Shown: positions 3,079-16,061 of the stretch, one piece after another
How positions within the stretch are numbered: position 1 is the stretch's first letter
Layout of the letters: every line of letters begins with the position of its first letter
Virus record (IMG/VR): IMGVR_UViG_3300021426_000004
Location: 1-64,000 of that record
Length of the DNA: 64,000 nucleotides
Source: a virus
Taxonomy: Duplodnaviria; Caudoviricetes
Direction: 5' to 3' (one strand)
Program-made: the position numbers and the translations under genes
The notes under the pieces: generated by a model
What the model was told of the DNA's origin: nothing
Seen by the model: the letters and a program-made list of their open reading frames with translations, nothing else
Databases searched by the model: none

Positions 3079-4233
3079 ATGTTTGACAACGATAATAATC
3101 TTTCTTATACTCAAGCAGATGAGATCGCTCGATATGTTTTCGATCAGCTCTCGTCAATGAACCTTGAAAACTCTATAGAGTCAGTGCCGACAACAGAAAG
3201 GAACACAGAAATGGGACGGCGAAAGGTTCACATCACCTTACCGGATGGTACTACAACATGGATTACTGGTAATACGTTTACTGATTTGATCATGTCGGCA
3301 ATAAATAAATACACAGTACCGCAGCCAACAGACAGCGAGACATTCAAAGATTATACGGATAAAATCTTTGATATTTTTCTTTTACCAAGATGGAAGCCTT
3401 CCACTGCTGATACCAATAGGTTTCTACTGGATAGACATCTTCATCCATACTTTGATGACATGACTTTGTCTCAAATCAGCACGGCTGAAATTCAAAAGTT
3501 CTTTCAAACAAAAAAGCATTTATCTAAATCATATACAAAACAAATGCTGATCATGCTTCATGAAATATTCCAGAACGCTGTAGAAGACGGAAAAGTAAAA
3601 ACAGATCCAACATTATCAAAAAGAATTACACTGCCTGATCGTGCCACGAAAAGAGAAGCATTAAACATTGAAGAGTTCTATGACATCACCACTAATATCA
3701 AGGCTCTCGATGAATCGGATGCCAAGATTTTAGCACTCTTCTGCTATACAGGTATGCGAAGAGGTGAAGTCCTAGGTCTGACGTGGGACCATGTCTTGGA
3801 AGACAAGATATTAGTATGTTCCGAAGTAACATTTAAAGGAAATACTTCAGTTGTTCAGAACTATACAAAGAGTAAATCTGGAATAAGAAGCATACCAATA
3901 CAAAAGGAATTAAAAGAATACCTACAAAACAGAGGAAAAGGTTTTGTAGTCAGCGGCGATAAGCCTATGACACAGTCAAAGTTTGTAAGAACATGGGAAA
4001 GAATAGGGAAGAAGATCAATCTTCACAATGCGACGCCGCACATATTCAGACACACTTACTTAACACTGCTTGCAGCAAGCAATGTCGATCCTAAGACGAT
4101 TCAGACAATTGCTGGCCATTCTGACTTCAGCTTTACGTTTAATAAATATATCGACAAAAGCAAAAATAATATTCAGAATGCAAGTAATATGCTGAGTGAT
4201 ACACTGGACAAGATGACAAAAAAGTTGACGTAA
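3079..4233 (+). CDS. int: tyrosine recombinase / phage integrase
   Basis: TGMRRGE (R), KSKSG (K), HIFRH (HxxR), AGH, terminal Y; N-terminal SAM-like domain. Confidence 0.95.
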   Translation: MFDNDNNLSYTQADEIARYVFDQLSSMNLENSIESVPTTERNTEMGRRKVHITLPDGTTTWITGNTFTDLIMSAINKYTVPQPTDSETFKDYTDKIFDIFLLPRWKPSTADTNRFLLDRHLHPYFDDMTLSQISTAEIQKFFQTKKHLSKSYTKQMLIMLHEIFQNAVEDGKVKTDPTLSKRITLPDRATKREALNIEEFYDITTNIKALDESDAKILALFCYTGMRRGEVLGLTWDHVLEDKILVCSEVTFKGNTSVVQNYTKSKSGIRSIPIQKELKEYLQNRGKGFVVSGDKPMTQSKFVRTWERIGKKINLHNATPHIFRHTYLTLLAASNVDPKTIQTIAGHSDFSFTFNKYIDKSKNNIQNASNMLSDTLDKMTKKLT

Positions 4234-5166: not shown

Positions 5167-5197
5167 AGGCCCCGTCGTTATGGCGGGGCCTACTTAT
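5167..5197 (+). terminator. terminator after hup
   Basis: AGGCCCCGTC/GGCGGGGCCT stem followed by AT-rich tail. Confidence 0.65.
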
Positions 5198-6288: not shown

Positions 6289-6633
6289 ATGTGTAATAGT
6301 ATGAAAGTAGATAAAGAAATTATGTTAACACAAAATGCAATATGCAATGGATTACATTTATTAAAGGAACAATACGAAGATACAGATTTTGATATTGTTT
6401 TCAAAGAAGGTGTATATGGCGAAGGACAAGTTTCTTTACGAGTAAAAGTATCTGACGTATTACGTGATGCTATTTCATTAATAAAAGAACGACCTGAAAT
6501 AGTTCGATGCAAAGACTGCATGTTCTGGAAAGATCAGGGTCAGACATCACGATGGATTCCATGCGTCAGTGCAAAAACAGATAAAGATTGGTTTTGCGCC
6601 TCTGGAAAAAGGAAGGACGAAAATGAACGATAA
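6289..6633 (+). CDS. array-family protein with VRCKDC...DWFC zinc module
   Basis: LLKEQ; EIVRCKDC...WFCASGKRK. Confidence 0.7.
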   Translation: MCNSMKVDKEIMLTQNAICNGLHLLKEQYEDTDFDIVFKEGVYGEGQVSLRVKVSDVLRDAISLIKERPEIVRCKDCMFWKDQGQTSRWIPCVSAKTDKDWFCASGKRKDENER

Positions 6634-6934
6634 AGAGAAGATTATTCAAGGACTGGAAATTCAACTTGATGATTTGCAGAAATACGCTGATGCTGACGAA
6701 ACACTTTCGCTGACACAGGAACAAGCAAAAAAGATTATTTCCGTGCTGAAAGAGCAGGAAATTGGGCATTGGATTGTACTTAAAAACTGTTCTAATGCTG
6801 GCGTTTATTGTTCAGAGTGTCATACAAAAGTGTTTGATAACTATCCGTTTAAAAAGAAGTTTTCATATTTCTGCCCACACTGTGGAACGAGGATGGAAAG
6901 GCATAATATACAGGGAGATGGTGAAGTGAAATGA
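6623..6934 (+). CDS. array-family protein (DKEKII..LKEQE + GHWI..CSEC..CPHCG)
   Basis: shared N module plus zinc ribbon. Confidence 0.75.
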   Translation: MNDKEKIIQGLEIQLDDLQKYADADETLSLTQEQAKKIISVLKEQEIGHWIVLKNCSNAGVYCSECHTKVFDNYPFKKKFSYFCPHCGTRMERHNIQGDGEVK

Positions 6935-7104
6935 TAGCAGTAGTCATTTTGATTGTATTGGTCACAGTTATGTCTACGTATGCTGCGCTTGGAACATATC
7001 ATAACCAACAAGATATTAAAGCTTTAACAGAGATAACAAAAGGAATAGGATATAACGCAAAACACATTTACCAAATATATGAAATGTTAAAAGAAAAGGA
7101 ATGA
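6931..7104 (+). CDS. small membrane protein (57 aa, not in ORF track)
   Basis: MIAVVILIVLVTV...LKEKE*; ATG follows GGTGAAGTG. Confidence 0.6.
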   Translation: MIAVVILIVLVTVMSTYAALGTYHNQQDIKALTEITKGIGYNAKHIYQIYEMLKEKE

Positions 7105-7487
7105 AACAAATGGAAAATTATGTAATTAATCCACAGGTGTTTTACTGGATTAATGTCCTTGGTATTCTACAAACCGTAATTGCTATAATCGGAGGAGTGC
7201 TCGTAACAGCGTTTATATGTCTGGTTGTTGGATGGATATACAACGCAAGTGAAGTGAAAAATGGTTTCGAAGATAACGAAGTTTATATGAAAGTGTGTAG
7301 AACCTGGGCCATCGTAACTGGGATTATTGGTTTTGTTCTGATTGTGGCATCAATTTTTATTCCAGGAAGGACGACCAGTATAGAAATGCTAATCGCGAAA
7401 ACCGCTACTTTTGATAACGTTCATTGGACCGTTCAGCAAGTGAAAGACGTGGTTGATTATATCGTTCACGCCATTAACGGCATCTAA
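7101..7487 (+). CDS. membrane protein
   Basis: two TM helices; YVINPQVFYW, IFIPGRTT. Confidence 0.7.
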   Translation: MKQMENYVINPQVFYWINVLGILQTVIAIIGGVLVTAFICLVVGWIYNASEVKNGFEDNEVYMKVCRTWAIVTGIIGFVLIVASIFIPGRTTSIEMLIAKTATFDNVHWTVQQVKDVVDYIVHAINGI

Positions 7488-7526
7488 TGAAAGTCTGCAG
7501 AATGCGCTGAAAGAAGGTGAAATTGG

Positions 7527-7997
7527 ATGGGTTTGACTGAAAGACATTTATTTGAAAATGAAGATGTGCCAGAAAATTATGAATGGGATTTAGAAGACAC
7601 TGTGCATAACTCACGTACAAACAAAAAGACTGAAGATTCTATAGAACCAAAGTATACGTGTGAACCATATATGATTTATGGTTGCGGACTTGACTTTAAC
7701 CGGCCGAAATACAAAGAAGATTGTTATTTTTATGAAGAAACAAAAGACATGGGCGCAACCATAAGATATTGTACACAATCAAAAATTAAGTGGGGTTATT
7801 GTCCATGCGAAGGATGCGACAAGTATATTAGCAACGCAGAAGCAAGCAAAATTATAAGAAATTGTGTAGAAAAAAGAACAGAGGAAAAGAAAAACGCCAA
7901 ACAGTCTGCAAAAACTAATACAAAGAAAAGCGTTTGCTATGGATTAGGAAGCGATTATTGTATGTCAGAATGCGAAAATGTATGTCCTTATAGATAA
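7527..7997 (+). CDS. Cys-rich hypothetical protein
   Basis: multiple Cys clusters. Confidence 0.65.
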   Translation: MGLTERHLFENEDVPENYEWDLEDTVHNSRTNKKTEDSIEPKYTCEPYMIYGCGLDFNRPKYKEDCYFYEETKDMGATIRYCTQSKIKWGYCPCEGCDKYISNAEASKIIRNCVEKRTEEKKNAKQSAKTNTKKSVCYGLGSDYCMSECENVCPYR

Positions 7998-8025
7998 TGC
8001 ATATAGAAAAAAGGATGGAAGCAGA

Positions 8026-8415
8026 ATGATATTAAAGAAGATAGCGAGTAAAATTTTAAAAAACGAGATCGATGGGTTGAAACAAAAGCTTAAAAAACGA
8101 GAGAATGAATATTATGAATCGCTAAAAGAACGAGCTGATGACCAGGCAAAGACGGCAAAAGATCTTGCGGATTTGAAGTCGTGCCATGAAACCATTAAAC
8201 AACTCACAGATGAGAATGAAATATTAAGGAAATACTATCGTTTGGATTCAGAGCCTACAGACGAAGAAAAGATAAAAATAAGAATTGATCTGAAAATTCA
8301 TGATCTTGAGATGCAGCTCATTCAAGAACGGTTAATGGCGATAGAGATTAATCAGCAATCTGCAAGACAGTTCTATTATTCCAACATGTATGGGACATTT
8401 CCAATAAGGCAATAA
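8026..8415 (+). CDS. coiled-coil hypothetical protein
   Basis: ORF; start inferred from RBS. Confidence 0.6.
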   Translation: MILKKIASKILKNEIDGLKQKLKKRENEYYESLKERADDQAKTAKDLADLKSCHETIKQLTDENEILRKYYRLDSEPTDEEKIKIRIDLKIHDLEMQLIQERLMAIEINQQSARQFYYSNMYGTFPIRQ

Positions 8416-8430
8416 AATGAGGTGAAATAA

Positions 8431-8655
8431 ATGAAAAACTGTAAAATCTGTGCTCATCACCATGAAGTCGAAAAAGTTAAGCTCTTCCCTGGCGGAGCTG
8501 AATGCACCTTCCTTGATGGATACGTCTGCACTGCGAGAATCGACGTTGATGATAAAGTTGAATGGCATGAGAACACTAATGACAGCGAATACTGCTGCGA
8601 CAATTATATTCCTAAGAAAAAGAAGGAAAGAACTGGCCCTATTATTGGAGGGTAA
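8431..8655 (+). CDS. Cys-rich small protein
   Basis: GAGGTGA RBS; CKIC...CC. Confidence 0.65.
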   Translation: MKNCKICAHHHEVEKVKLFPGGAECTFLDGYVCTARIDVDDKVEWHENTNDSEYCCDNYIPKKKKERTGPIIGG

Positions 8656-8660
8656 CCATA

Positions 8661-9086
8661 ATGGATGCTAATAAAACTGGTCAATCTTATATTCCTGCCG
8701 AAATAATATTTAAACCAACATGCAGTTCCTGTGAAAAACAACTTAATCTCGTGATTAATTATGAGGAAGAAATCGAAGAATTTACAGAATCTAAACCAAA
8801 TTTGTCGCATAGAAATTACACAATCACACCATCACATTGCCCGTTTTGCGGAAAACGTTTTGAAAATATTATAATTCCGACCTCATTACCTTATGACAAT
8901 CGAATAGTAAAAACATACAATAATAAGCCATATTACAAACCGCAATGCAATCATTGCAAGTATTATAAAGGTAAGTTTGATGCCAAAGGTTATGCTGGAT
9001 GTTCAGCGCGTAAAACCATCGCTGTTGTTTGGGATGACTGGTGCCCAGAATACGAAATGCAGAATGTTCTTGCTACGGAGGATTAA
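8661..9086 (+). CDS. double zinc-binding protein
   Basis: CSSC...CPFCG; CNHC...C...C. Confidence 0.7.
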   Translation: MDANKTGQSYIPAEIIFKPTCSSCEKQLNLVINYEEEIEEFTESKPNLSHRNYTITPSHCPFCGKRFENIIIPTSLPYDNRIVKTYNNKPYYKPQCNHCKYYKGKFDAKGYAGCSARKTIAVVWDDWCPEYEMQNVLATED

Positions 9087-9093
9087 AATACCG

Positions 9094-9273
9094 ATGAAAA
9101 CGGAAAATATCAATCGAGCCATATACATTAACAGAAGAACATCGACAAAAGATTATGTTCCGATCTGTGCATATTGTAAAAAATCAGACTCTTGCGATGA
9201 ACCCGATAAAAAATGGCGTATTACTTGTCCGAATAACGTATATTTACGATCAGAAAAAGAAAGGATTTGTTGA
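9094..9273 (+). CDS. small Cys-rich protein
   Basis: GGAGG RBS; CAYC..C..C. Confidence 0.55.
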   Translation: MKTENINRAIYINRRTSTKDYVPICAYCKKSDSCDEPDKKWRITCPNNVYLRSEKERIC

Positions 9274-9536
9274 ATATGGCAACGAAAATAGATGATTTTA
9301 TCAAAAGGGTCAAATCAACTGCCGAGGAAGATCTTTTTACTCCAAGAATATTTTACTATATTTCTGAACCAATGTTTGATGAAATGTGTGAACTATTAAA
9401 AGAGAAGAAAGCGGTTAAGCCAAGATTAAGCATAGAAGATAGATGTTATTACTGTGGAAAATGCAAAGAAACAGAAATAATGACTTATTACAATTACTGC
9501 CCAAACTGTGGAAGAGCGGTGAAGTGGGATGATTAA
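9267..9536 (+). CDS. array-family zinc-ribbon protein
   Basis: LLKEKKAVKP...CGKC...CPNCGRAVKWDD. Confidence 0.75.
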   Translation: MLNMATKIDDFIKRVKSTAEEDLFTPRIFYYISEPMFDEMCELLKEKKAVKPRLSIEDRCYYCGKCKETEIMTYYNYCPNCGRAVKWDD

Positions 9537-9870
9537 TAAGGATAAAGTAATGAAAGACATCGAGTACTGTTTGCGTCCTGATAATACAAACCTGTGCGGA
9601 GAGTGCTCTTATAAAGATATTTCCTATAATTGCAAACATGCTTTGATTAAAGATGTTTACGAGCTGCTGAAAGAGCAGGAAGCGAAAATAGAAAAACTTA
9701 TAGGATTTATAAATGGTTTTAGCAAGGATGCAGTTCCTGTTATCCGATGCAAGGATTGCAAACACTCATGTGACTATACAGATATTTTCCCTGACCGTGC
9801 ATATAAATGCATAAAAAATGGCAGATTTCACAATGAAAGATGGTACTGTGCTGACGGGGAAAGGAAGTAA
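9529..9870 (+). CDS. array-family protein
   Basis: KDKVMKDIE...LLKEQEA...IRCKDC...WYCADGERK. Confidence 0.75.
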   Translation: MINKDKVMKDIEYCLRPDNTNLCGECSYKDISYNCKHALIKDVYELLKEQEAKIEKLIGFINGFSKDAVPVIRCKDCKHSCDYTDIFPDRAYKCIKNGRFHNERWYCADGERK

Positions 9871-9877
9871 AACAGGA

Positions 9878-10150
9878 ATGACAGGTAAAGACTTGCGATA
9901 TTCCTTGGTGTTAAAAGGGATAAAACCTTCTGAATTAGCCAGTCGTATTGGTGTTTCGAGAAGTATGATTTCAAAGTGGCTTTCTGGCACATCAAAAATT
10001 CCATCAAAGCGTGAAGATGCCATCGTACATTTCCTTGGAGAAGTTACAGATGCTGAAGCAAAAGATAGGCGAAGAATAGAAGAAATAGTATCAACTATGT
10101 CAAAAGAAGAAAAAATCAATGCTATTCAATTTATATTAGGAACACTTTAA
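9878..10150 (+). CDS. XRE-family HTH regulator
   Basis: PSELASRIGVSRSMISKWLSG. Confidence 0.8.
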   Translation: MTGKDLRYSLVLKGIKPSELASRIGVSRSMISKWLSGTSKIPSKREDAIVHFLGEVTDAEAKDRRRIEEIVSTMSKEEKINAIQFILGTL

Positions 10151-10191
10151 GACAGATGGCAATGGAAAAAAGACAAAAGAAGGTGAACTGA

Positions 10192-10386
10192 ATGAACAAG
10201 GAAAAGGTTATGTTTTGGCTTAAGATATGTGGAAAAGAAGACGATTGCTCTGCTATTTGTCCTTACAGACTTGGAAGACCGACTTGCATGCGTAAACTTA
10301 TGGCTGACGCATATGAGTGCATGAAAGAACAGGAAGCGAAATCCACGCTAACAGCAGGAATAAACAAAATCCCATTAAAATGGTAA
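10192..10386 (+). CDS. array-family protein
   Basis: MNKEKV...CPY...MKEQEA...LKW. Confidence 0.7.
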   Translation: MNKEKVMFWLKICGKEDDCSAICPYRLGRPTCMRKLMADAYECMKEQEAKSTLTAGINKIPLKW

Positions 10387-10402
10387 AAAGGCGGTGGAGT
10401 GA

Positions 10403-10618
10403 ATGACGGATTGCAACAAAGTTATTAAAGATATTGAATACGCAAAAGACCTTTTACAGAATAGACCGGAACAGGATACTGTTGATTACAAAGTCTGGGA
10501 AGTATTGGATGATGCTCTCGACTTAATTCATGATTTACGAAGTCAAATCGCAATTCTTGTCGGAACACAGCACACTCTTTGCGAATTAATAGAGAAAGGA
10601 AATAATACGGAAAAATGA
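10403..10618 (+). CDS. array-family protein (N module only)
   Basis: MTDCNKVIKDIE...DDALDLI. Confidence 0.65.
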   Translation: MTDCNKVIKDIEYAKDLLQNRPEQDTVDYKVWEVLDDALDLIHDLRSQIAILVGTQHTLCELIEKGNNTEK

Positions 10619-10827
10619 AATTGTTTAAAAAGTCAAAACGAAAACGCTACAATTTACGGTCTGAACTTGCCAAATGGGTTGAAAAGAATATCGGTTCTGA
10701 ATATATAGCCGAAGCGCTTGAAAAATATGACAATATTAACAGTGGCATTCCGATTGGCGGTATGGCTGAAACGGTGGCATTTGTTGGCATGGTTGAAACC
10801 GTAAAAGCTGAAGTGGAAGGTCGGTGA
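10615..10827 (+). CDS. hypothetical protein
   Basis: ends VEGR* in junction motif. Confidence 0.6.
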   Translation: MKLFKKSKRKRYNLRSELAKWVEKNIGSEYIAEALEKYDNINSGIPIGGMAETVAFVGMVETVKAEVEGR

Positions 10828-10834
10828 AGTGTAA

Positions 10835-11026
10835 ATGACAAATGACGAGTGGACATTGAAGTCGGATGATTGGCGCAAAGGATGGCGTTACGGTCAAGGC
10901 GATGTATTTGTTCACAAAAAGAATACGCCTGATTTTATTGATGGATATAAATATGCCATTGAGCATCCGGAAGGAAGCTGTTATTCAGTAGACGCAACAA
11001 CAGGGAAAGACAATGAGGTAAAGTAG
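10835..11026 (+). CDS. hypothetical protein
   Basis: bounded by junction motifs. Confidence 0.6.
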   Translation: MTNDEWTLKSDDWRKGWRYGQGDVFVHKKNTPDFIDGYKYAIEHPEGSCYSVDATTGKDNEVK

Positions 11027-11027
11027 A

Positions 11028-11306
11028 ATGTCTGACAGGGAATTACTATTAGAACGGCTTAAACGGCTTGCAATTGTTCTTGACGAGTTAATGCCACAAT
11101 GCGCCGAATTAGTACGTGATACCATTGACTTGCTGAAGGAGCAAGATGCTGTAAAGCCTGTTCGTGATAAGAAAACAGGTCGTATATGGTTGTGCGGAAA
11201 ATGCGGTTCATATGTTGGATTTGAAGATCATGACGAGGATGACCCAAACGAGTTTGACAAATTCTGTCGTGAATGTGGACATCCAGTTTTGTGGGAAGGC
11301 CGGTGA
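11028..11306 (+). CDS. array-family zinc-ribbon protein
   Basis: MSDRE...LLKEQDAVKP...CGKCG...CRECG. Confidence 0.75.
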   Translation: MSDRELLLERLKRLAIVLDELMPQCAELVRDTIDLLKEQDAVKPVRDKKTGRIWLCGKCGSYVGFEDHDEDDPNEFDKFCRECGHPVLWEGR

Positions 11307-11311
11307 AGTTC

Positions 11312-11626
11312 ATGGACAGGGAGAAGATTATCAAAGGACTGCATGATACAAGACGGTATCTTGAGGACAAAGAATGGGTTGATAGAGGTGCATCACCGCA
11401 TATCGATTCAATTAATGACGCCCTTGCTCTGCTGAAAGAGCAGGAAACAAAAACAGGACATTGGGTTAGTGTTAAAGATGGAAACATTGTTGCAATAGAT
11501 AATGATGGATATCCAGAACAAGAATGTTTTTGTTCGGAATGTAAAAAATATCTTACTGCATCTGACGAGTATGCGGTTTATGGGAAATATTGTCCGTATT
11601 GTGGTGCAAAAATGGAAAGTCGGTGA
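11312..11626 (+). CDS. array-family zinc-ribbon protein
   Basis: MDREKIIKGL...LLKEQE..GHWV..CSEC..CPYCGAKM. Confidence 0.75.
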   Translation: MDREKIIKGLHDTRRYLEDKEWVDRGASPHIDSINDALALLKEQETKTGHWVSVKDGNIVAIDNDGYPEQECFCSECKKYLTASDEYAVYGKYCPYCGAKMESR

Positions 11627-11631
11627 AGTGA

Positions 11632-12051
11632 ATGGACAGGGAAAATGTTTTAAAAGGATTAAAATGTTGCATAAAAAGCACATGGAACGATCCTTTTGCA
11701 GAATGTGCACATTGCCCATATAACGATATCAGCATTGCTGTTCAGGATTGCAGAGCTGTTTTGTCTGCGGATGCGCTGGAACTACTGAAAGAGCAGGAAG
11801 CACGAGTGATGACGCTGGATGAGGTCAAAGCGTTTGATTGGGATTGTTGCTATTTGGAAGAAGAACGTTTGCCTGGAAAACAATACAAAATGATTTGCGG
11901 TGATTATGCATTAACCTGTATTACATGGCCATGCATTGCCTCAATACGGATACAGCGCGGTGACGACAGCTATGGCAAGAAATGGCGGTGTTGGTCTGCA
12001 AAGCCATCGGATGAGCAAAGAAAGACGGTGAAGTGGGATGGTTCAGATTGA
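11632..12051 (+). CDS. array-family protein
   Basis: MDRENVLKGL...LLKEQEARVMTLDE...YGKKWRCW..KP...VKW. Confidence 0.75.
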   Translation: MDRENVLKGLKCCIKSTWNDPFAECAHCPYNDISIAVQDCRAVLSADALELLKEQEARVMTLDEVKAFDWDCCYLEEERLPGKQYKMICGDYALTCITWPCIASIRIQRGDDSYGKKWRCWSAKPSDEQRKTVKWDGSD

Positions 12052-12310
12052 TATTCAGATGCCATCTGATTGTTATTCTTGTTGGGTGAGGAAAAACATG
12101 GGATGTAAGATTGCAAACGACAGTGGATGGCTGAATAATAAACGTGATGATAACTGTCCGTTGAAAAAACATGAAGCGAAAAATCCAGTTATACGTAAAA
12201 AGAATGGCTATTGGGATTATGTTTGTCCTACATGTGGAAGTCGTGATGAAGAACTTTTTCGTGAATGGAACTATTGTCCATATTGCGGACAAGAGGTGAA
12301 GTGGGAATGA
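12038..12310 (+). CDS. array-family zinc-ribbon protein
   Basis: IDIQMPSDC...CPLKKHEA...CPTCG...CPYCGQEVKWE. Confidence 0.75.
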   Translation: MVQIDIQMPSDCYSCWVRKNMGCKIANDSGWLNNKRDDNCPLKKHEAKNPVIRKKNGYWDYVCPTCGSRDEELFREWNYCPYCGQEVKWE

Positions 12311-12486
12311 ATGAGGATGTGTTTATTCTTTGCGTATTGGGGATTGCGGAAGCTGGCTGTATTATTGGGCTTATCGTTAATCATTTTCGTGAAAAGAAAA
12401 TTGAAAAAGAAACAGGAAAGAAGCCTACATATTATAGCGCCGTTGGTAATTGGTTGTGTGGAAGAACAAGGAGCTGGATGAAATGA
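12307..12486 (+). CDS. small membrane protein
   Basis: hydrophobic N-terminus; ATG follows junction motif. Confidence 0.55.
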   Translation: MNEDVFILCVLGIAEAGCIIGLIVNHFREKKIEKETGKKPTYYSAVGNWLCGRTRSWMK

Positions 12487-12773
12487 CTGACAGGGAAAAT
12501 GTTATCAGTACATTAGAGGATATAAAAACGCAAACTGCGGAAATCGGACTTGATAGTGCAGTAATAGCGCATAAATTTATTGACGAAATTCTTACTCTGC
12601 TGAAAGAGCAGGAAGCAGTTGAACCGACATTCAAACAAGGTGAAGACGGCATTTTTGTATGGGCCTGTGGTTCGTGTGGTGCGTACATGTATCACATTTA
12701 CGATGGAATCGACAAAGCGAAGGAATATGCAAAATACTGCCGTCAGTGCGGTAAAAAGGTGAAGTGGGAATGA
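12483..12773 (+). CDS. array-family zinc-ribbon protein
   Basis: MTDRENVI...LLKEQEAVEP...CGSCG...CRQCGKKVKWE. Confidence 0.75.
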   Translation: MTDRENVISTLEDIKTQTAEIGLDSAVIAHKFIDEILTLLKEQEAVEPTFKQGEDGIFVWACGSCGAYMYHIYDGIDKAKEYAKYCRQCGKKVKWE

Positions 12774-13126
12774 CAATTGAAGAATGGGCAAAAGATTTCA
12801 AATCATATGTAAACGCATTAACTATGTTTAGAGATGATTATAACGGCATCATGGAATACATTGACGATGCCATTGCTATACTGAAAGAACAGGACGCCGT
12901 TGAGATAAATAAAGAATACAACGCAGATGAAAATGCAGCCAAATGCTTGAATGCAATACAAACGATAAACAAATACATAGATGACGAAGAAGATGAATGT
13001 AGTTGTACATATTGGAAAGACAAAAAAGGTTATGCATTTCAAGCTGACACTGGCTACTTTTTCGAAGGTTTAGACAATTTTGAGGCATATCTCATAAAAC
13101 GGCTTAAGCAAGAGGCGAAGCAATAA
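12770..13126 (+). CDS. array-family protein
   Basis: DDAIAILKEQDAVE. Confidence 0.7.
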   Translation: MTIEEWAKDFKSYVNALTMFRDDYNGIMEYIDDAIAILKEQDAVEINKEYNADENAAKCLNAIQTINKYIDDEEDECSCTYWKDKKGYAFQADTGYFFEGLDNFEAYLIKRLKQEAKQ

Positions 13127-13317
13127 TGAAAATCACACAATCAAGCCATTGGAACATGCCAACAACCGATGGTTATAGCTTAACTGTGACATATGTTTAC
13201 TCAAGCAAATATTTGCATGAAATTGAAGATGTAGAAAAGAAACTTCCCAAGGGAATAATTATTATGGATACAGATAAACCTCAAAGGATGTATCCATTAG
13301 AGCAGGAAAGTAGGTGA
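13126..13317 (+). CDS. hypothetical protein
   Basis: ends LEQESR* at junction motif. Confidence 0.6.
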   Translation: MKITQSSHWNMPTTDGYSLTVTYVYSSKYLHEIEDVEKKLPKGIIIMDTDKPQRMYPLEQESR

Positions 13318-13323
13318 AGCGGA

Positions 13324-13476
13324 ATGAGTCTTGACAATGTTATCAGGTGCCTTGGAATAAATTTTCTGCTGATGGGTTATCTTGTATGTGCAACGCTTGT
13401 TCATATTGCTATTAACAGTTCAAGGATTCTGAAGAAGTTAGAGGAAATGAACAAAGACAAGCAGGAAGGTAGGTGA
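13324..13476 (+). CDS. small membrane protein (50 aa, not in ORF track)
   Basis: lies between two junction motifs; ends KQEGR*. Confidence 0.55.
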   Translation: MSLDNVIRCLGINFLLMGYLVCATLVHIAINSSRILKKLEEMNKDKQEGR

Positions 13477-13482
13477 AGTGGA

Positions 13483-13674
13483 ATGAGCGAGTGGCATAGC
13501 GTTGATTTTGCACAGCAAGGTTGGCAATGCCCTATTTGTAAACGGGTTTATTCGCCAACAATTCCAATGTGTTATTACTGTGGAAATGGTGTTCCTTATA
13601 CGGTTTCAAGCACAACAGTTGAGTTGCATCATGAATCTGTAAAGAAAACGGAAAAGCCGGAGGAAGAGTGGTAA
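13483..13674 (+). CDS. zinc-ribbon protein
   Basis: QQGWQCPICKRVYSPTIPMCYYC. Confidence 0.7.
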   Translation: MSEWHSVDFAQQGWQCPICKRVYSPTIPMCYYCGNGVPYTVSSTTVELHHESVKKTEKPEEEW

Positions 13675-13680
13675 AGTGGG

Positions 13681-13851
13681 ATGAATGAACCGGAAACCTC
13701 AAAACAGACGGTTTATGGAACGTGGGAAGAAGCAGATGAAATTCCTTATTATCCGAACGTTTTTGAACGGATATGGAATTTATTAAAAAATATGTTTACG
13801 AGGAAAAATAAAAAGGTCGGTGAAGTGAATGACGATCCAACGAATGATTGA
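13681..13851 (+). CDS. hypothetical protein (56 aa, not in ORF track)
   Basis: ATG directly after junction motif. Confidence 0.5.
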   Translation: MNEPETSKQTVYGTWEEADEIPYYPNVFERIWNLLKNMFTRKNKKVGEVNDDPTND

Positions 13852-14146
13852 ACTATTAGAAATTGAACATGAATGCATGCTCAGAGGATCGCACGATGAC
13901 TGCGACCGGAACTGTGCCGATTGTGAATTAGTGCAGGATGATGGTGATCTACATGAAATGTACACAAACGTTATTGGTCTGATGAAGGTCATGCAAAGAG
14001 AGCGTGAACCTATACCCGTTGAAATTTGTGGGAAAATTTTCGACACCAAATTTGGGGATTGCCCACACTGCGGAGAAAGGTTGAACAGCGAAGTGTACCC
14101 GCATTGGTGCGGATTCTGTGGACAGGCGGTGAAGTGGAATGCCTGA
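13829..14146 (+). CDS. array-family zinc-ribbon protein
   Basis: CDRNCADC...CPHCG...CGFCGQAVKW. Confidence 0.75.
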   Translation: MTIQRMIELLEIEHECMLRGSHDDCDRNCADCELVQDDGDLHEMYTNVIGLMKVMQREREPIPVEICGKIFDTKFGDCPHCGERLNSEVYPHWCGFCGQAVKWNA

Positions 14147-14399
14147 TATTGACAGACTCATCAAAGCATGGAAGATCTTCCGTGACAGCAACCCGTATGA
14201 AATCTGTAACGGCAGAGAATTCAGGGCGATAAGGGAGCCCGAATACTGCATGGGACAGATGATCGAGGATACCATTGCCATATTAAAAGAGCAGGAAGCA
14301 GAATTGCTCCAACAAGAAGCAGAGCTTGATATCCTTCGAAATATTTACAAGCAAGAAAACCCATACAACCAGGTGGTGAAGTGGGATGATAATAATTGA
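14139..14399 (+). CDS. array-family protein
   Basis: DTIAILKEQEA...VVKWD. Confidence 0.7.
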   Translation: MPDIDRLIKAWKIFRDSNPYEICNGREFRAIREPEYCMGQMIEDTIAILKEQEAELLQQEAELDILRNIYKQENPYNQVVKWDDNN

Positions 14400-14604
14400 T
14401 ATTCCTATGCCTGAGAATTGTTCAGATTGTCCATGCAATAATGATTATGTAAACTGTGGAATCAACCACAAAAGTTTTTACGATGATAAATTCGATGATC
14501 CTTTCACAAAGAGACCAGAATGGTGCCCATTAATTGAAATGGGAATTAAAAAAAAATGGAAAATGCAGATACTAGCAAATGAAGAAGGTGACAACATAGT
14601 ATGA
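14386..14604 (+). CDS. array-family Cys-rich protein
   Basis: IDIPMPENCSDCP...RPEWCPL; shares N module with 12038. Confidence 0.7.
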   Translation: MIIIDIPMPENCSDCPCNNDYVNCGINHKSFYDDKFDDPFTKRPEWCPLIEMGIKKKWKMQILANEEGDNIV

Positions 14605-14903
14605 AACGCATCATAATTGTGGCACTTCTGTTTGTTATGATGATTTGTCTGACTGGCTGTACATCTATAAATAATGGAATAGTTAAAGATAAATCATTTG
14701 TTCCAGCGCATCGAACATATCAACCGATTATAATGATGCAGAATAAACATACACAGATTATTCCACGATGGATATCACACGCTGATTCATGGAGTATTCT
14801 TGTTGAGAACGAGGATGGAAAAGAATGGTGGAATGTTACGCAAGATTATTATAATTCCGTGAATATCGGTGACTACGTAGACAGGCGAAAAACAGATAAT
14901 TAA
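14601..14903 (+). CDS. lipoprotein
   Basis: signal peptide with lipobox LTGC. Confidence 0.75.
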   Translation: MKRIIIVALLFVMMICLTGCTSINNGIVKDKSFVPAHRTYQPIIMMQNKHTQIIPRWISHADSWSILVENEDGKEWWNVTQDYYNSVNIGDYVDRRKTDN

Positions 14904-14961
14904 GTATATTCCATCAGAAACACGCAACAAACAAAAATTGAAAGAATCTTAAAATATTTTA

Positions 14962-15118
14962 TGAACGGTGGCGAAATAGGTAAACGCTCATACATCTGAG
15001 AGACGGGACATGGGGGAAGAACCTGCACCGACAATAACGAGACGAAGAAGTCGGCGGTCGGGACGGATGTGTAAAATACTAATCCCGTTATGTGAGGTGC
15101 AAATCCTCACCCGTTCAA
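14962..15118 (+). ncRNA. tRNA-like structured RNA, copy 1 (anticodon arm replaced by pseudoknot domain)
   Basis: acceptor TGAACGG/CCGTTCA, D arm GCG-AAATAGGTAAA-CGC, T arm GTGAGG-TGCAAAT-CCTCAC, ~100-nt insert. Confidence 0.7.
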
Positions 15119-15151
15119 TTACTATTTTATCAGTGAAGTGTTACATTAAAA

Positions 15152-15475
15152 GTGGAGGAATATATGGAAAAGCCAATTTATGAAGAAATTGATGAAGGTG
15201 GTAGATATCTGTGCAACGTTACGCTCTGTCGAGTATGTGGAAAACGTTTGTACGGACACAACATTTGCACAGAATGTAAAACACGAATCGATCACTGTAA
15301 TGACAAAAATGTTGCAACACAAAAACTGTCACCATCTGAGGTTGAATTGCTGAAAGAAATTCGCAAACAAACACAAGCTCCATATAGAGATATTGTAGAA
15401 GGAATAAGAATTTATAAGCTTGATAAGAAGAAGATTGTAAACTATCTTCGAGAGATAGCTATAGTTTATGCCTAA
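15152..15475 (+). CDS. zinc ribbon fused to EF-Ts N-terminal (UBA-like) domain
   Basis: CRVCG..CTEC; LLKEIRKQTQAPYRDIVEGI...KIVNYLRE. Confidence 0.6.
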   Translation: MEEYMEKPIYEEIDEGGRYLCNVTLCRVCGKRLYGHNICTECKTRIDHCNDKNVATQKLSPSEVELLKEIRKQTQAPYRDIVEGIRIYKLDKKKIVNYLREIAIVYA

Positions 15476-15517
15476 ATTACCGAGCGGCGGCTGAATAGGC
15501 AGAAGGGATTCAAGACA

Positions 15518-15700
15518 ATGTATGACTTCGAAATTGAATGGTTTTTAAAAAAGGAAGCAAAGAAGCCCGTTGTAAATTATAAAAAGTATGAAGACGCACT
15601 TCATCATTGTCCTTCGTGTGGGATAGTCCTTCCAGAAAGAGCAGTATATGGAGAATCAAATTTCTGTTACAAATGCGGTCAAAAGTTGAAATGGGAATAA
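15518..15700 (+). CDS. array-family zinc-ribbon protein
   Basis: KKPV...CPSCG...FCYKCGQKLKWE. Confidence 0.7.
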   Translation: MYDFEIEWFLKKEAKKPVVNYKKYEDALHHCPSCGIVLPERAVYGESNFCYKCGQKLKWE

Positions 15701-16026: not shown

Positions 16027-16061
16027 TTACTGTATTACGAAATGCCAAAAAGGGGTAACTA

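Follow-up and report, generated by a model that had tools for sequence, protein, structure and literature searches.

The DNA analysed here comprises the first 64 kb (64,000 nucleotides, hereafter the window) of virus record IMGVR_UViG_3300021426_000004 (Caudoviricetes), a complete genome of 148,117 bp with direct terminal repeats. Its subject is an array of about 16 small genes of one family on the plus strand, at approximately 6.3 to 15.7 kb, many of which carry a short conserved DNA motif in mid-gene, here called the hinge. The genome is that of a large temperate siphophage-like phage. An integrase (tyrosine recombinase) is encoded at 3079-4233, 2 kb upstream of the array, and the minus strand beyond 20 kb carries giant tail, fibre and YomG-like genes. 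From 4.8 to 19 kb the plus strand is tightly packed with small genes, and its purine and GC skews are strong; past the hairpin at 5167-5191, neither a promoter nor a terminator was convincingly detected within this interval. Rfam families and tRNAs were sought across 4.0-18.5 kb, and none was detected.

The hinge was searched for as the 17-mer CTGAAAGAGCAGGAAGC with up to 3 mismatches. Nine copies were found in the window, all on the plus strand (Table 1), against 0.13 expected from shuffled sequences, and none of 100 shuffles reached nine. The whole 148,117-bp genome held no further copy, all nine being confined to 6.7-14.3 kb. Each copy lies midway along a small plus-strand open reading frame (ORF), in which it is read in frame as (L/M)-K-E-Q-(E/D), the longer reading being L-K-E-Q-E-A. 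Degenerate hinges are present at 9396 (LKEKKA), 12161 (LKKHEA) and 15545. Upstream of the hinge stands an N module, M-x-D-R-E-(K/N)-V-I ... D-A-L-x-L-L, and downstream stands one of several C modules: GHW..CSEC..CPxCG (genes 6623 and 11312, named by start position), the AV(K/E)P predicted zinc ribbon (9267, 11028, 12038 and 12483), RCKDC..W(F/Y)CA.G.RK (6289 and 9529) or RVMTLDE..WRCW (11632). Genes 10192, 12764 and 14139 have no C module. An alternative N module, IDIxMP..C..CPL, occurs alone in 14386 and fused in 12038. An initial annotation, made from the letters and ORFs of the window, had described these modules and their varied combinations and had located nine near-identical and three degenerate hinges; the translated ORFs agree with the former, and all twelve hinge sites were recovered.

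A second motif, GGTGAAGTGG, marks the borders between the genes. With up to 1 mismatch, 14 copies were found between 6920 and 14375 at stop/start junctions, and the 7 scattered near-matches elsewhere in the genome are none of them at gene junctions. The full form is GGTGAAGTGG(G/A)ATG, in which a Shine-Dalgarno-like GGTGA stands ahead of the start codon. The upstream genes read the motif in different frames, as VKW(E/D)-stop, GEVK-stop or R-stop (with TGA within GGTGA), so the conserved signal is nucleic acid rather than peptide. The C-terminal peptides VKWE-stop and WEGR-stop are accordingly two frames of one junction DNA that holds the ribosome-binding site (RBS) of the next gene. Of 56 unbiased family genes, 40 have the junction motif at their end. 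Neither motif coincides with any promoter- or terminator-like site, the hinge being coding sequence and the junction an RBS/start site.

The codons of the hinge were compared with the usage around them. Of the leucine codons of this genome 16-18% are CTG, and of its glutamate codons 19-23% are GAG; at the hinge-like sites of the window, degenerate copies included, these rare codons were found in 8 of 13 and 9 of 13 cases, respectively. A complete codon-blind (fully degenerate) scan of IMG/VR for LKEQEAV(E/K)P gave 63 hits, corresponding to 59 non-redundant genes, and the background codon usage was taken from the same genes. Leucine was encoded by CTG in 49 of the 59 genes (background 0.18), lysine by AAA in 56 (0.58), the first glutamate by GAG in 57 (0.34), glutamine by CAG in 54 (0.49), the second glutamate by GAA in 57 (0.66), alanine by GCG in 43 (0.24) and valine by GTT in 44 (0.35), with binomial P values from 1e-8 to 1e-27. 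A few codons to either side, third-position information was only about 0.1 bit, that is, the flanks are saturated. Opposite glutamate synonyms are fixed at the two positions (GAG, then GAA), and lysine is AAA in the hinge and AAG in DREKVI and VKWE; since the codon fixed for a given amino acid depends on its position, the pattern reflects position-specific identity and not codon bias.

Similar results were obtained with a second codon-blind IMG/VR scan for DALxLLKEQE, which returned 81 unique genes, 72 of them with other residues after the hinge. The codons for L, L, K, E and Q were CTG (62/81), CTG (68/81), AAA (70/81), GAG (71/81) and CAG (70/81), and the conserved D, A and L just upstream were ordinary mixtures of synonyms. 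Similarly fixed codons were seen where the genes start (ATG-nCn-GAC-AGG-GAG-AAG-GTT-ATC) and where they end (GTG-AAG-TGG-GAA). Three LKEQEAV(E/K)P sites outside the family, in bacterial genomes, used other codons. A hinge-independent sample drawn through the VRCKDCKH motif contained 4 LKEQE sites among the matches listed, too few to use. At the level of sequence, these comparisons demonstrate that the linkers are fixed at synonymous sites while the cassettes between them are saturated there, and the near fixation in both samples upholds the earlier suggestion of synonymous conservation at the hinge.

Such fixity might have a cause other than exchange. The hinge core CTGCTGAAAGAGCAG folds into a perfect hairpin, 5 bp in the stem and 5 nt in the loop (CUGCU-GAAAG-AGCAG; window 9658-9687, 11423-11452 and 12591-12620, and the family consensus), and could be an RNA or single-stranded-DNA element that binds a protein, is a processing site or makes ribosomes pause where the two domains meet, with recombination borders falling there merely because it is the sole stretch shared. 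The five most fixed codons are exactly this 15-nt hairpin (-5.5 kcal/mol), the extended hinge consensus folds at -11.6 kcal/mol, and 60-nt windows placed on the hinge have somewhat lower folding energies than windows elsewhere in these genes (-13.2 versus -10.1 kcal/mol); the element also sits at the domain boundary with locally rare codons. However, the odds ratio for covariation at two synonymous stem pairs was about 3, and non-pair controls gave 3.9 and 2.6, so a structural role is not supported by covariation. All five inner pairs form in just 37 of the 59 genes and the stem in about half of the window copies, no Rfam family matches, and a hairpin would leave unexplained why the start patch and the junction are just as fixed at the DNA level. 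We consider the hairpin unlikely as the main cause.

Two further roles of the hinge in expression were considered and dropped. An ATG follows the hinge in the RVMTLDE class only, and an internal start was not retained as a general reading; no slippery heptamer was found for a frameshift site. In the RVMTLDE class itself, a conserved in-frame ATG lies 8 nt 3' of the AGGAAG of the hinge (window 11785-11815), and a gene caller applied to a related contig (L155) called the 80-aa C module alone, starting at this ATG. Separate translation of the C module of this class is conceivable from its sequence.

The two halves of the genes were then compared separately across 171 family genes (14,535 gene pairs), a shared half being defined by at least 80% DNA identity. 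A half was shared by 82 pairs: 39 shared the N half only, 36 the C half only, 6 both, and 1 was intermediate. In the 75 pairs of the N-only and C-only groups, the other half was below 45% identity, that is, random. In N-only pairs, local alignments begin no more than about 20 nt from the start codon or junction and end 15-22 nt into the hinge; in C-only pairs they begin 1-12 nt before the hinge and end within about 30 nt of the stop codon. The N module of g14139, for example, is about 90% identical to that of L133 up to ..GCAGGAAGC and random beyond, L133 having a GHW C module. Likewise, the N module of g12038 is about 95% identical to that of L152 as far as the hinge, which is intact in L152 and followed by a GHW C module. 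L133 and L152 themselves have unrelated N modules and are about 98% identical from hinge to junction. The N module of g11028 was found with a different C module in L002, and its C module with at least 4 N modules; the N module of g13829 has an intact hinge in P0085 and P0146; and a module of the g14386 type lies directly 5' of LKEQEAVKP in L044, L097 and L118. In the protein database, the WRCW C family (102 proteins) occurs on 82 N clusters and the zinc-ribbon family (92 proteins) on 71, and 11 N clusters carry two C families. The incongruent pairing of halves that the initial annotation had put forward is therefore found both in the DNA pairs and in the protein clusters.

Some proteins carry 2-3 hinges with a short middle cassette between them (e.g. 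EIENLKQTAQSMMEGI), giving N-hinge-M-hinge-C chains (L049, L081, L125, L128, L129, P0048 and P0052). In shared modules the ratio of nonsynonymous to synonymous divergence (dN/dS) was mostly 0.03-0.5, with dS from 0.3 to above 1. The ratios indicate that the modules are under purifying selection and encode functional proteins, and the dS values make the modules old relative to the unchanged hinge. Separately, a VRCKDCKH...(D)FCSYGERK module (IMG/VR, L167-L277) was seen to be far more widely spread than the LKEQE family, in at least 120 unique genes; among the matches listed, 10 have a hinge, and most of the listed modules follow a linker ..P(T/A)(V/A)DAVPV that is itself 3' of unrelated N-terminal domains.

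Divergence of ordinary tandem paralogs, with LKEQE as a conserved protein motif whose codons follow from descent or bias and whose flanking halves co-evolve, would account for the tandem arrangement of these genes and for a motif that is always in one frame and at a structural boundary. It is already contradicted by the sequence comparisons and is regarded as very improbable: the codon choice is position-specific and runs counter to the background, neighbouring conserved residues vary synonymously, the half-sharing pairs mostly have unrelated other halves, and near-isogenic genomes differ through replacements bounded by linkers. The initial annotation had named congruent halves and ordinary synonymous variation at the motif as outcomes that would count against it; both were checked, neither occurred, and its DNA-level crossover reading is thereby supported.

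These replacements were identified in close relatives, which derive from ENA, JGI and Logan assemblies of samples that, judged by their names, appear to be sheep rumen. Two contigs, L154 and L156, represent the phage of the window itself (99.95-100% identity over 10-13.5 kb) with the nine-copy array intact. The identity of the array in three assemblies made by different pipelines speaks against chimeric assembly as well as against a rapid, programmed switch. Beyond window position 16028, L154, otherwise 99.95% identical to the window, diverges into 2.4 kb (L154:13547-15983) carrying a ribbon-helix-helix (RHH) gene and a second tyrosine recombinase. This stretch, found nowhere in the 148-kb genome, may be a small insertion.

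Two other contigs, L155 (142 kb) and L158 (from another assembly), have flanks 95-99.8% identical to the window and differ from it by discrete replacements (Table 1). In the first, present in both, the left break lies in GGTCGGT(G/A)AAGT of the junction at 11309 and the right break falls on base 1 of the hinge, at 11785; the recombinant joint is base-for-base identical in L155 and L158, which come from independent ENA and JGI assemblies. The second, in L158, has its left break on the junction motif at 12758 and its right break about 20 nt before the stop codon of g12764, where the window has no copy of the junction motif. In the third, the core of the g9529 C module (window 9745-9850) is exchanged in L155 between RCKDCKH and WYCADGER, with 95-100% identity on both sides. 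Comparison of these genomes demonstrates that cassettes have been exchanged between phages with borders on linkers. The junction, foreseen as a second hinge site, thus acts as a DNA linker in its own right, with 14 copies at stop/start junctions and cassette borders falling there too. Apparently any conserved patch in these sequences can serve as an exchange border.

Table 1. Coordinates of hinges, junctions, replaced segments and family genes in the window.
Feature	Coordinates	Strand	Description
Hinge copy	6746..6762	+	2 mismatches
Hinge copy	9667..9683	+	exact
Hinge copy	10321..10337	+	2 mismatches
Hinge copy	11133..11149	+	3 mismatches
Hinge copy	11432..11448	+	1 mismatch
Hinge copy	11785..11801	+	exact; right breakpoint of the L155/L158 replacement
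Hinge copy	12600..12616	+	exact
Hinge copy	12881..12897	+	2 mismatches
Hinge copy	14283..14299	+	2 mismatches
Junction-motif span	6920..14384	+	14 copies; Shine-Dalgarno-like GGTGA, 5-6 nt, ATG
Junction copies, starts	6920, 9518, 10807, 10823, 11622, 12027, 12295	+	first seven
Junction copies, starts	12758, 13313, 13472, 13670, 13819, 14128, 14375	+	last seven
Replaced segment	11310..11784	+	g11312 and g11632 N module replaced by a 139-bp unrelated N module in L155/L158
Replaced segment	12776..13109	+	in L158, 197 bp with a 70-aa gene take the place of most of g12764
g6289	6289..6633	+	weak N module (LLKEQY at 6361) and RCKDC..WFCASGKRK C module
g6623	6623..6934	+	N module, hinge, GHW..CSEC..CPHCG predicted zinc-ribbon C module; phrog_22543, E 1.3e-7
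g9267	9267..9536	+	degenerate hinge LKEKKAVKP, predicted zinc ribbon with VKWDD end
g9529	9529..9870	+	Cys-loop N module, hinge, short helical spacer, RCKDC..WYCADGERK
g10192	10192..10386	+	Cys-loop N module, hinge MKEQEA, short tail, without C domain
g10403	10403..10618	+	N-module-like (MTDCNKVIKDIE..DDALDLI), without hinge
g11028	11028..11306	+	N module, hinge LKEQDA, predicted zinc ribbon with LWEGR end
g11312	11312..11626	+	N module, hinge, GHW predicted zinc ribbon; wholly within the segment replaced in L155/L158
g11632	11632..12051	+	Cys-loop N module, hinge, RVMTLDE..WRCW beta-rich C module; N module swapped in L155/L158
g12038	12038..12310	+	alternative N module (IDIQMP..C..CP), decayed hinge LKKHEA, predicted zinc ribbon with VKWE end
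g12483	12483..12773	+	helical-hairpin N module, hinge, predicted zinc ribbon with VKWE end
g12764	12764..13126	+	N-like module, hinge LKEQDA, acidic helical tail; 12776-13109 replaced in L158
g13829	13829..14146	+	decayed hinge (LMKVMQREREP), predicted zinc ribbon with VKWNA end
g14139	14139..14399	+	N module, hinge, coiled tail with VKWDDNN end
g14386	14386..14604	+	alternative N module alone (IIDIPMP..C..C...RPEWCPL)
g15518	15518..15700	+	C module only (predicted zinc ribbon with LKWE end), remnant hinge; phrog_10714, E 1.4e-5

All relatives are metagenomic contigs, and a mis-join across a shared repeat of 17-27 nt would keep the frame if it happened at the hinge; the chimeras could in that case be artefacts of assembly. 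This is scarcely credible in view of the agreement among assemblies, both of the nine-copy array (99.95-100% identical in three) and of the recombinant joint. The repeat is also shorter than the larger k-mers of the usual assemblers, and, with dS of 0.3-1, the shared modules are diverged alleles and not the same reads.

The borders also bear on a dedicated enzyme (a homing system, a nuclease of HUH or other type, or a site-specific recombinase) that would recognise the hinge or junction and move cassettes as integrons or shufflons do. In favour of one are the shortness, high conservation and partly palindromic nature of the sites, together with a tyrosine recombinase 2 kb upstream and a second one in variant L154. 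Nevertheless, borders also fall on RCKDCKH and WYCADGER within a C module, which favours general homology over a site-specific enzyme; the array is stable in three assemblies; and the family occurs on many unrelated contigs among which no shared enzyme was noticed. An enzyme of this kind is judged quite improbable.

The reading that we prefer, with a probability of about 0.75, is that short conserved linkers guide the homologous exchange of half-gene cassettes, i.e. modular shuffling mediated by linkers at a scale below the gene. The genes obey a fixed grammar in which variable cassettes of two kinds alternate with short conserved DNA linkers, likewise of two kinds. Linker A, the gene junction, is GGTCGGTGAAGTGG(G/A)ATG, Shine-Dalgarno-like and often overlapping the upstream stop, together with the first codons ..GAC-AGG-GAG-AAG-GTT-ATC (DREKVI). 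Linker B, the hinge, is CTG-CTG-AAA-GAG-CAG-GAA(-GCG-GTT), encoding LLKEQE(AV). The N cores between A and B are modelled as a two-helix hairpin, often with a Cys loop; the C cores between B and the next A are a predicted zinc ribbon, an RCKDC module, a WRCW beta domain or nothing. Exchange would be guided by 15-30 nt of identity, through homologous recombination, single-strand annealing or template switching. Crossovers at A or B would keep both the frame and the domain boundary, the latter because the hinge is the end of helix 2, ahead of the linker to the C domain, so that recombinants would usually be intact two-domain proteins. Cassettes that keep consensus linkers would spread, and the linkers would evolve in concert, homogenised because every crossover resolves inside one. 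The junction would probably double as a translational-coupling RBS along one long operon.

A bolder form of this proposal, which we regard as speculative and rather doubtful, treats the A-N-B-C-A grammar as self-maintaining and as a population-level generator of libraries of host-interaction or anti-defence proteins. The hinge, through its hairpin, would take an active part in promoting strand exchange or template switching, the cassettes would be semi-autonomous and spread by means of their consensus linkers, and the array would be a phage counterpart of antigenic-variation cassette systems.

Several observations weigh against linker-guided exchange. The recombination is deduced by comparing assembled metagenomic contigs, and the gene pairs counted are non-independent events. 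A homology of 15-30 nt is at or under the usual minimum for RecA-type exchange. RecT, ERF, AAA_24, Sak4-like and RecA proteins were sought in the genome and none was found. The sole candidate recombination function found is a 249-aa ORF at G000:C1:129591-130340 (L166:1318-2067), which matches the PHROG 'exonuclease' phrog_7838 (E 5e-33) and gives a Rad52 signal of 13.5 bits, below the cut-off. We know of no Chi site that matches. A role in RNA or single-stranded DNA for the perfect 5-bp hairpin of the hinge core could add to its fixity. On the side of function, searches of Pfam, NCBIfam and PHROGs with the family proteins gave no named function, only sub-threshold zinc-ribbon matches and function-less PHROGs, and in fold searches of two protein models the best match had Z 4.7, within noise, with no Foldseek match at E <0.4.

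Structural models were obtained with AlphaFold2 (AF2) for g12483 and g11632. The g12483 model (mean pLDDT 86) has a two-helix hairpin (residues 4-21 and 26-41) in which the hinge, L39-A45, ends helix 2 and is followed by a linker and a small predicted zinc ribbon. The g11632 model (pLDDT 66, low confidence) has a helix, a Cys loop, a second helix and a beta-rich C domain. For the predicted zinc ribbons, CxxC...CxxC is present and AF2 gives short strands, with all Pfam zinc-ribbon matches below the gathering score. AcrIIA7 (Z 4.2) and Tad2 (Z 3.9) were rejected as fold matches, both being inside the noise band. In the ESM Atlas, matches were hypothetical viral clusters and one DUF551 (PF04448) row, at a TM score of just 0.46 and for the low-confidence g11632 model; a Pfam search with g11632 and 44 homologs gave no match, DUF551 included. 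Only g6623 matches the Lar-like phrog_6422, weakly (E 5.8e-4, 21 bits, 38 residues of a 120-position profile), and neither Pfam nor NCBIfam supports a Lar-like reading of it.

The small proteins encoded by the array, 60-140 aa in length, are members of a large family from phage early operons that has no annotation. A profile of the N module, searched against protein representatives at E <=1e-3, matched 3,104 representative proteins, nearly always at residue 1, and their C parts are diverse; among the 150 best, 28 carry 2-3 hinges. No DNA match to the array was found in GenBank phages, and a protein search of GenBank phages with three family members gave no match except one weak one, to a human-gut contig. 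A degenerate hinge pattern had 4 hits in bacterial species genomes, of which 1 is a family member. It lies on a 14-kb contig (L165) in Selenomonas ruminantium metagenome-assembled genome RUG13114, with family genes and junction motifs; the GC content of this contig, 0.39, makes both its binning and a Selenomonas host doubtful. No description of the family or the hinge motif was found in the literature.

Among known systems, the PeSL cassettes of T4-type phages are intergenic units of a promoter and a stem-loop terminator that move whole genes, recombination between neighbouring copies giving mini-circles (Arbiol et al., 2010, PMC2839356; Comeau et al., 2014, PMC4122927). The array resembles them in its short conserved DNA motifs repeated through a region of small genes (non-essential ones in the PeSL case), in the motif-borne borders of replacements or indels between close phages (here 11309, 11785 and 12758), and in motifs that also have a role in expression. 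It differs in that one linker is an RBS/start junction and the other lies inside coding sequence, the unit being half a gene, and in that no sigma-70 promoter or terminator is found at the linkers. In T-even adhesins, the glycine-rich motifs of gp38 and the His boxes of gp37 are conserved motifs at which exchange takes place (Trojet et al., 2011, PMC3157838, citing Tetart et al., 1996, 1998). There too, by that account, conserved in-frame motifs part variable segments and exchanges map to the motifs, but the adhesins it describes are single-copy virion proteins with a known receptor-binding function. Here, by contrast, a tandem multigene family of early proteins has one hinge per gene and a many-to-many repertoire of N and C parts. 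No tail-fibre family was matched by the family proteins, and the genes sit in the early plus-strand operon. The array works like PeSL and T-even adhesin exchange, yet is a member of neither.

In temperate phages, mosaic borders bear traces of short homology, and relaxed, homology-driven recombination has been proposed as the driver (De Paepe et al., 2014, PMC3945230); in contrast, no Rad52-like recombinase was confirmed in the present genome. The modules of classical, Botstein-type modular evolution are blocks of genes, whereas here dedicated, synonymously fixed linkers act at a sub-gene scale. Integron attC sites are long imperfect inverted repeats that bound whole promoterless genes, unlike the 15-30-nt hairpin within genes and the half-gene units seen here. 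A short conserved motif also marks a variable domain swapped by recombination in polymorphic toxin loci (CdiA VENN, Rhs PxxxxDPxGL) and in antigenic-variation cassettes. The array differs from these in having no delivery domain, immunity gene or layout of silent cassettes and an expression site; both halves vary, each copy looks like an expressed gene, and in the place of an immunity gene stands a further member of the family.

The idea that phages evolve in modules, through recombination at conserved linkers, is decades old, with few clean cases, most of them for whole genes or tail fibres. The present array contributes synonymously fixed linkers inside and between very small genes that bound half-gene cassettes, in hundreds of natural recombinants, near-isogenic pairs included. 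For annotators and builders of protein families, the conserved C-terminal VKWE and WEGR are translated ribosome-binding sites, and at least 3,100 rumen-virome protein clusters are flagged as unannotated. An architecture in which a few conserved C domains carry hypervariable N cores resembles that of a conflict system. It is a guess, possible though tentative, that these proteins interact with the host or counter its defences and that they are under diversifying pressure; such pressure would explain the upkeep of the linker grammar.

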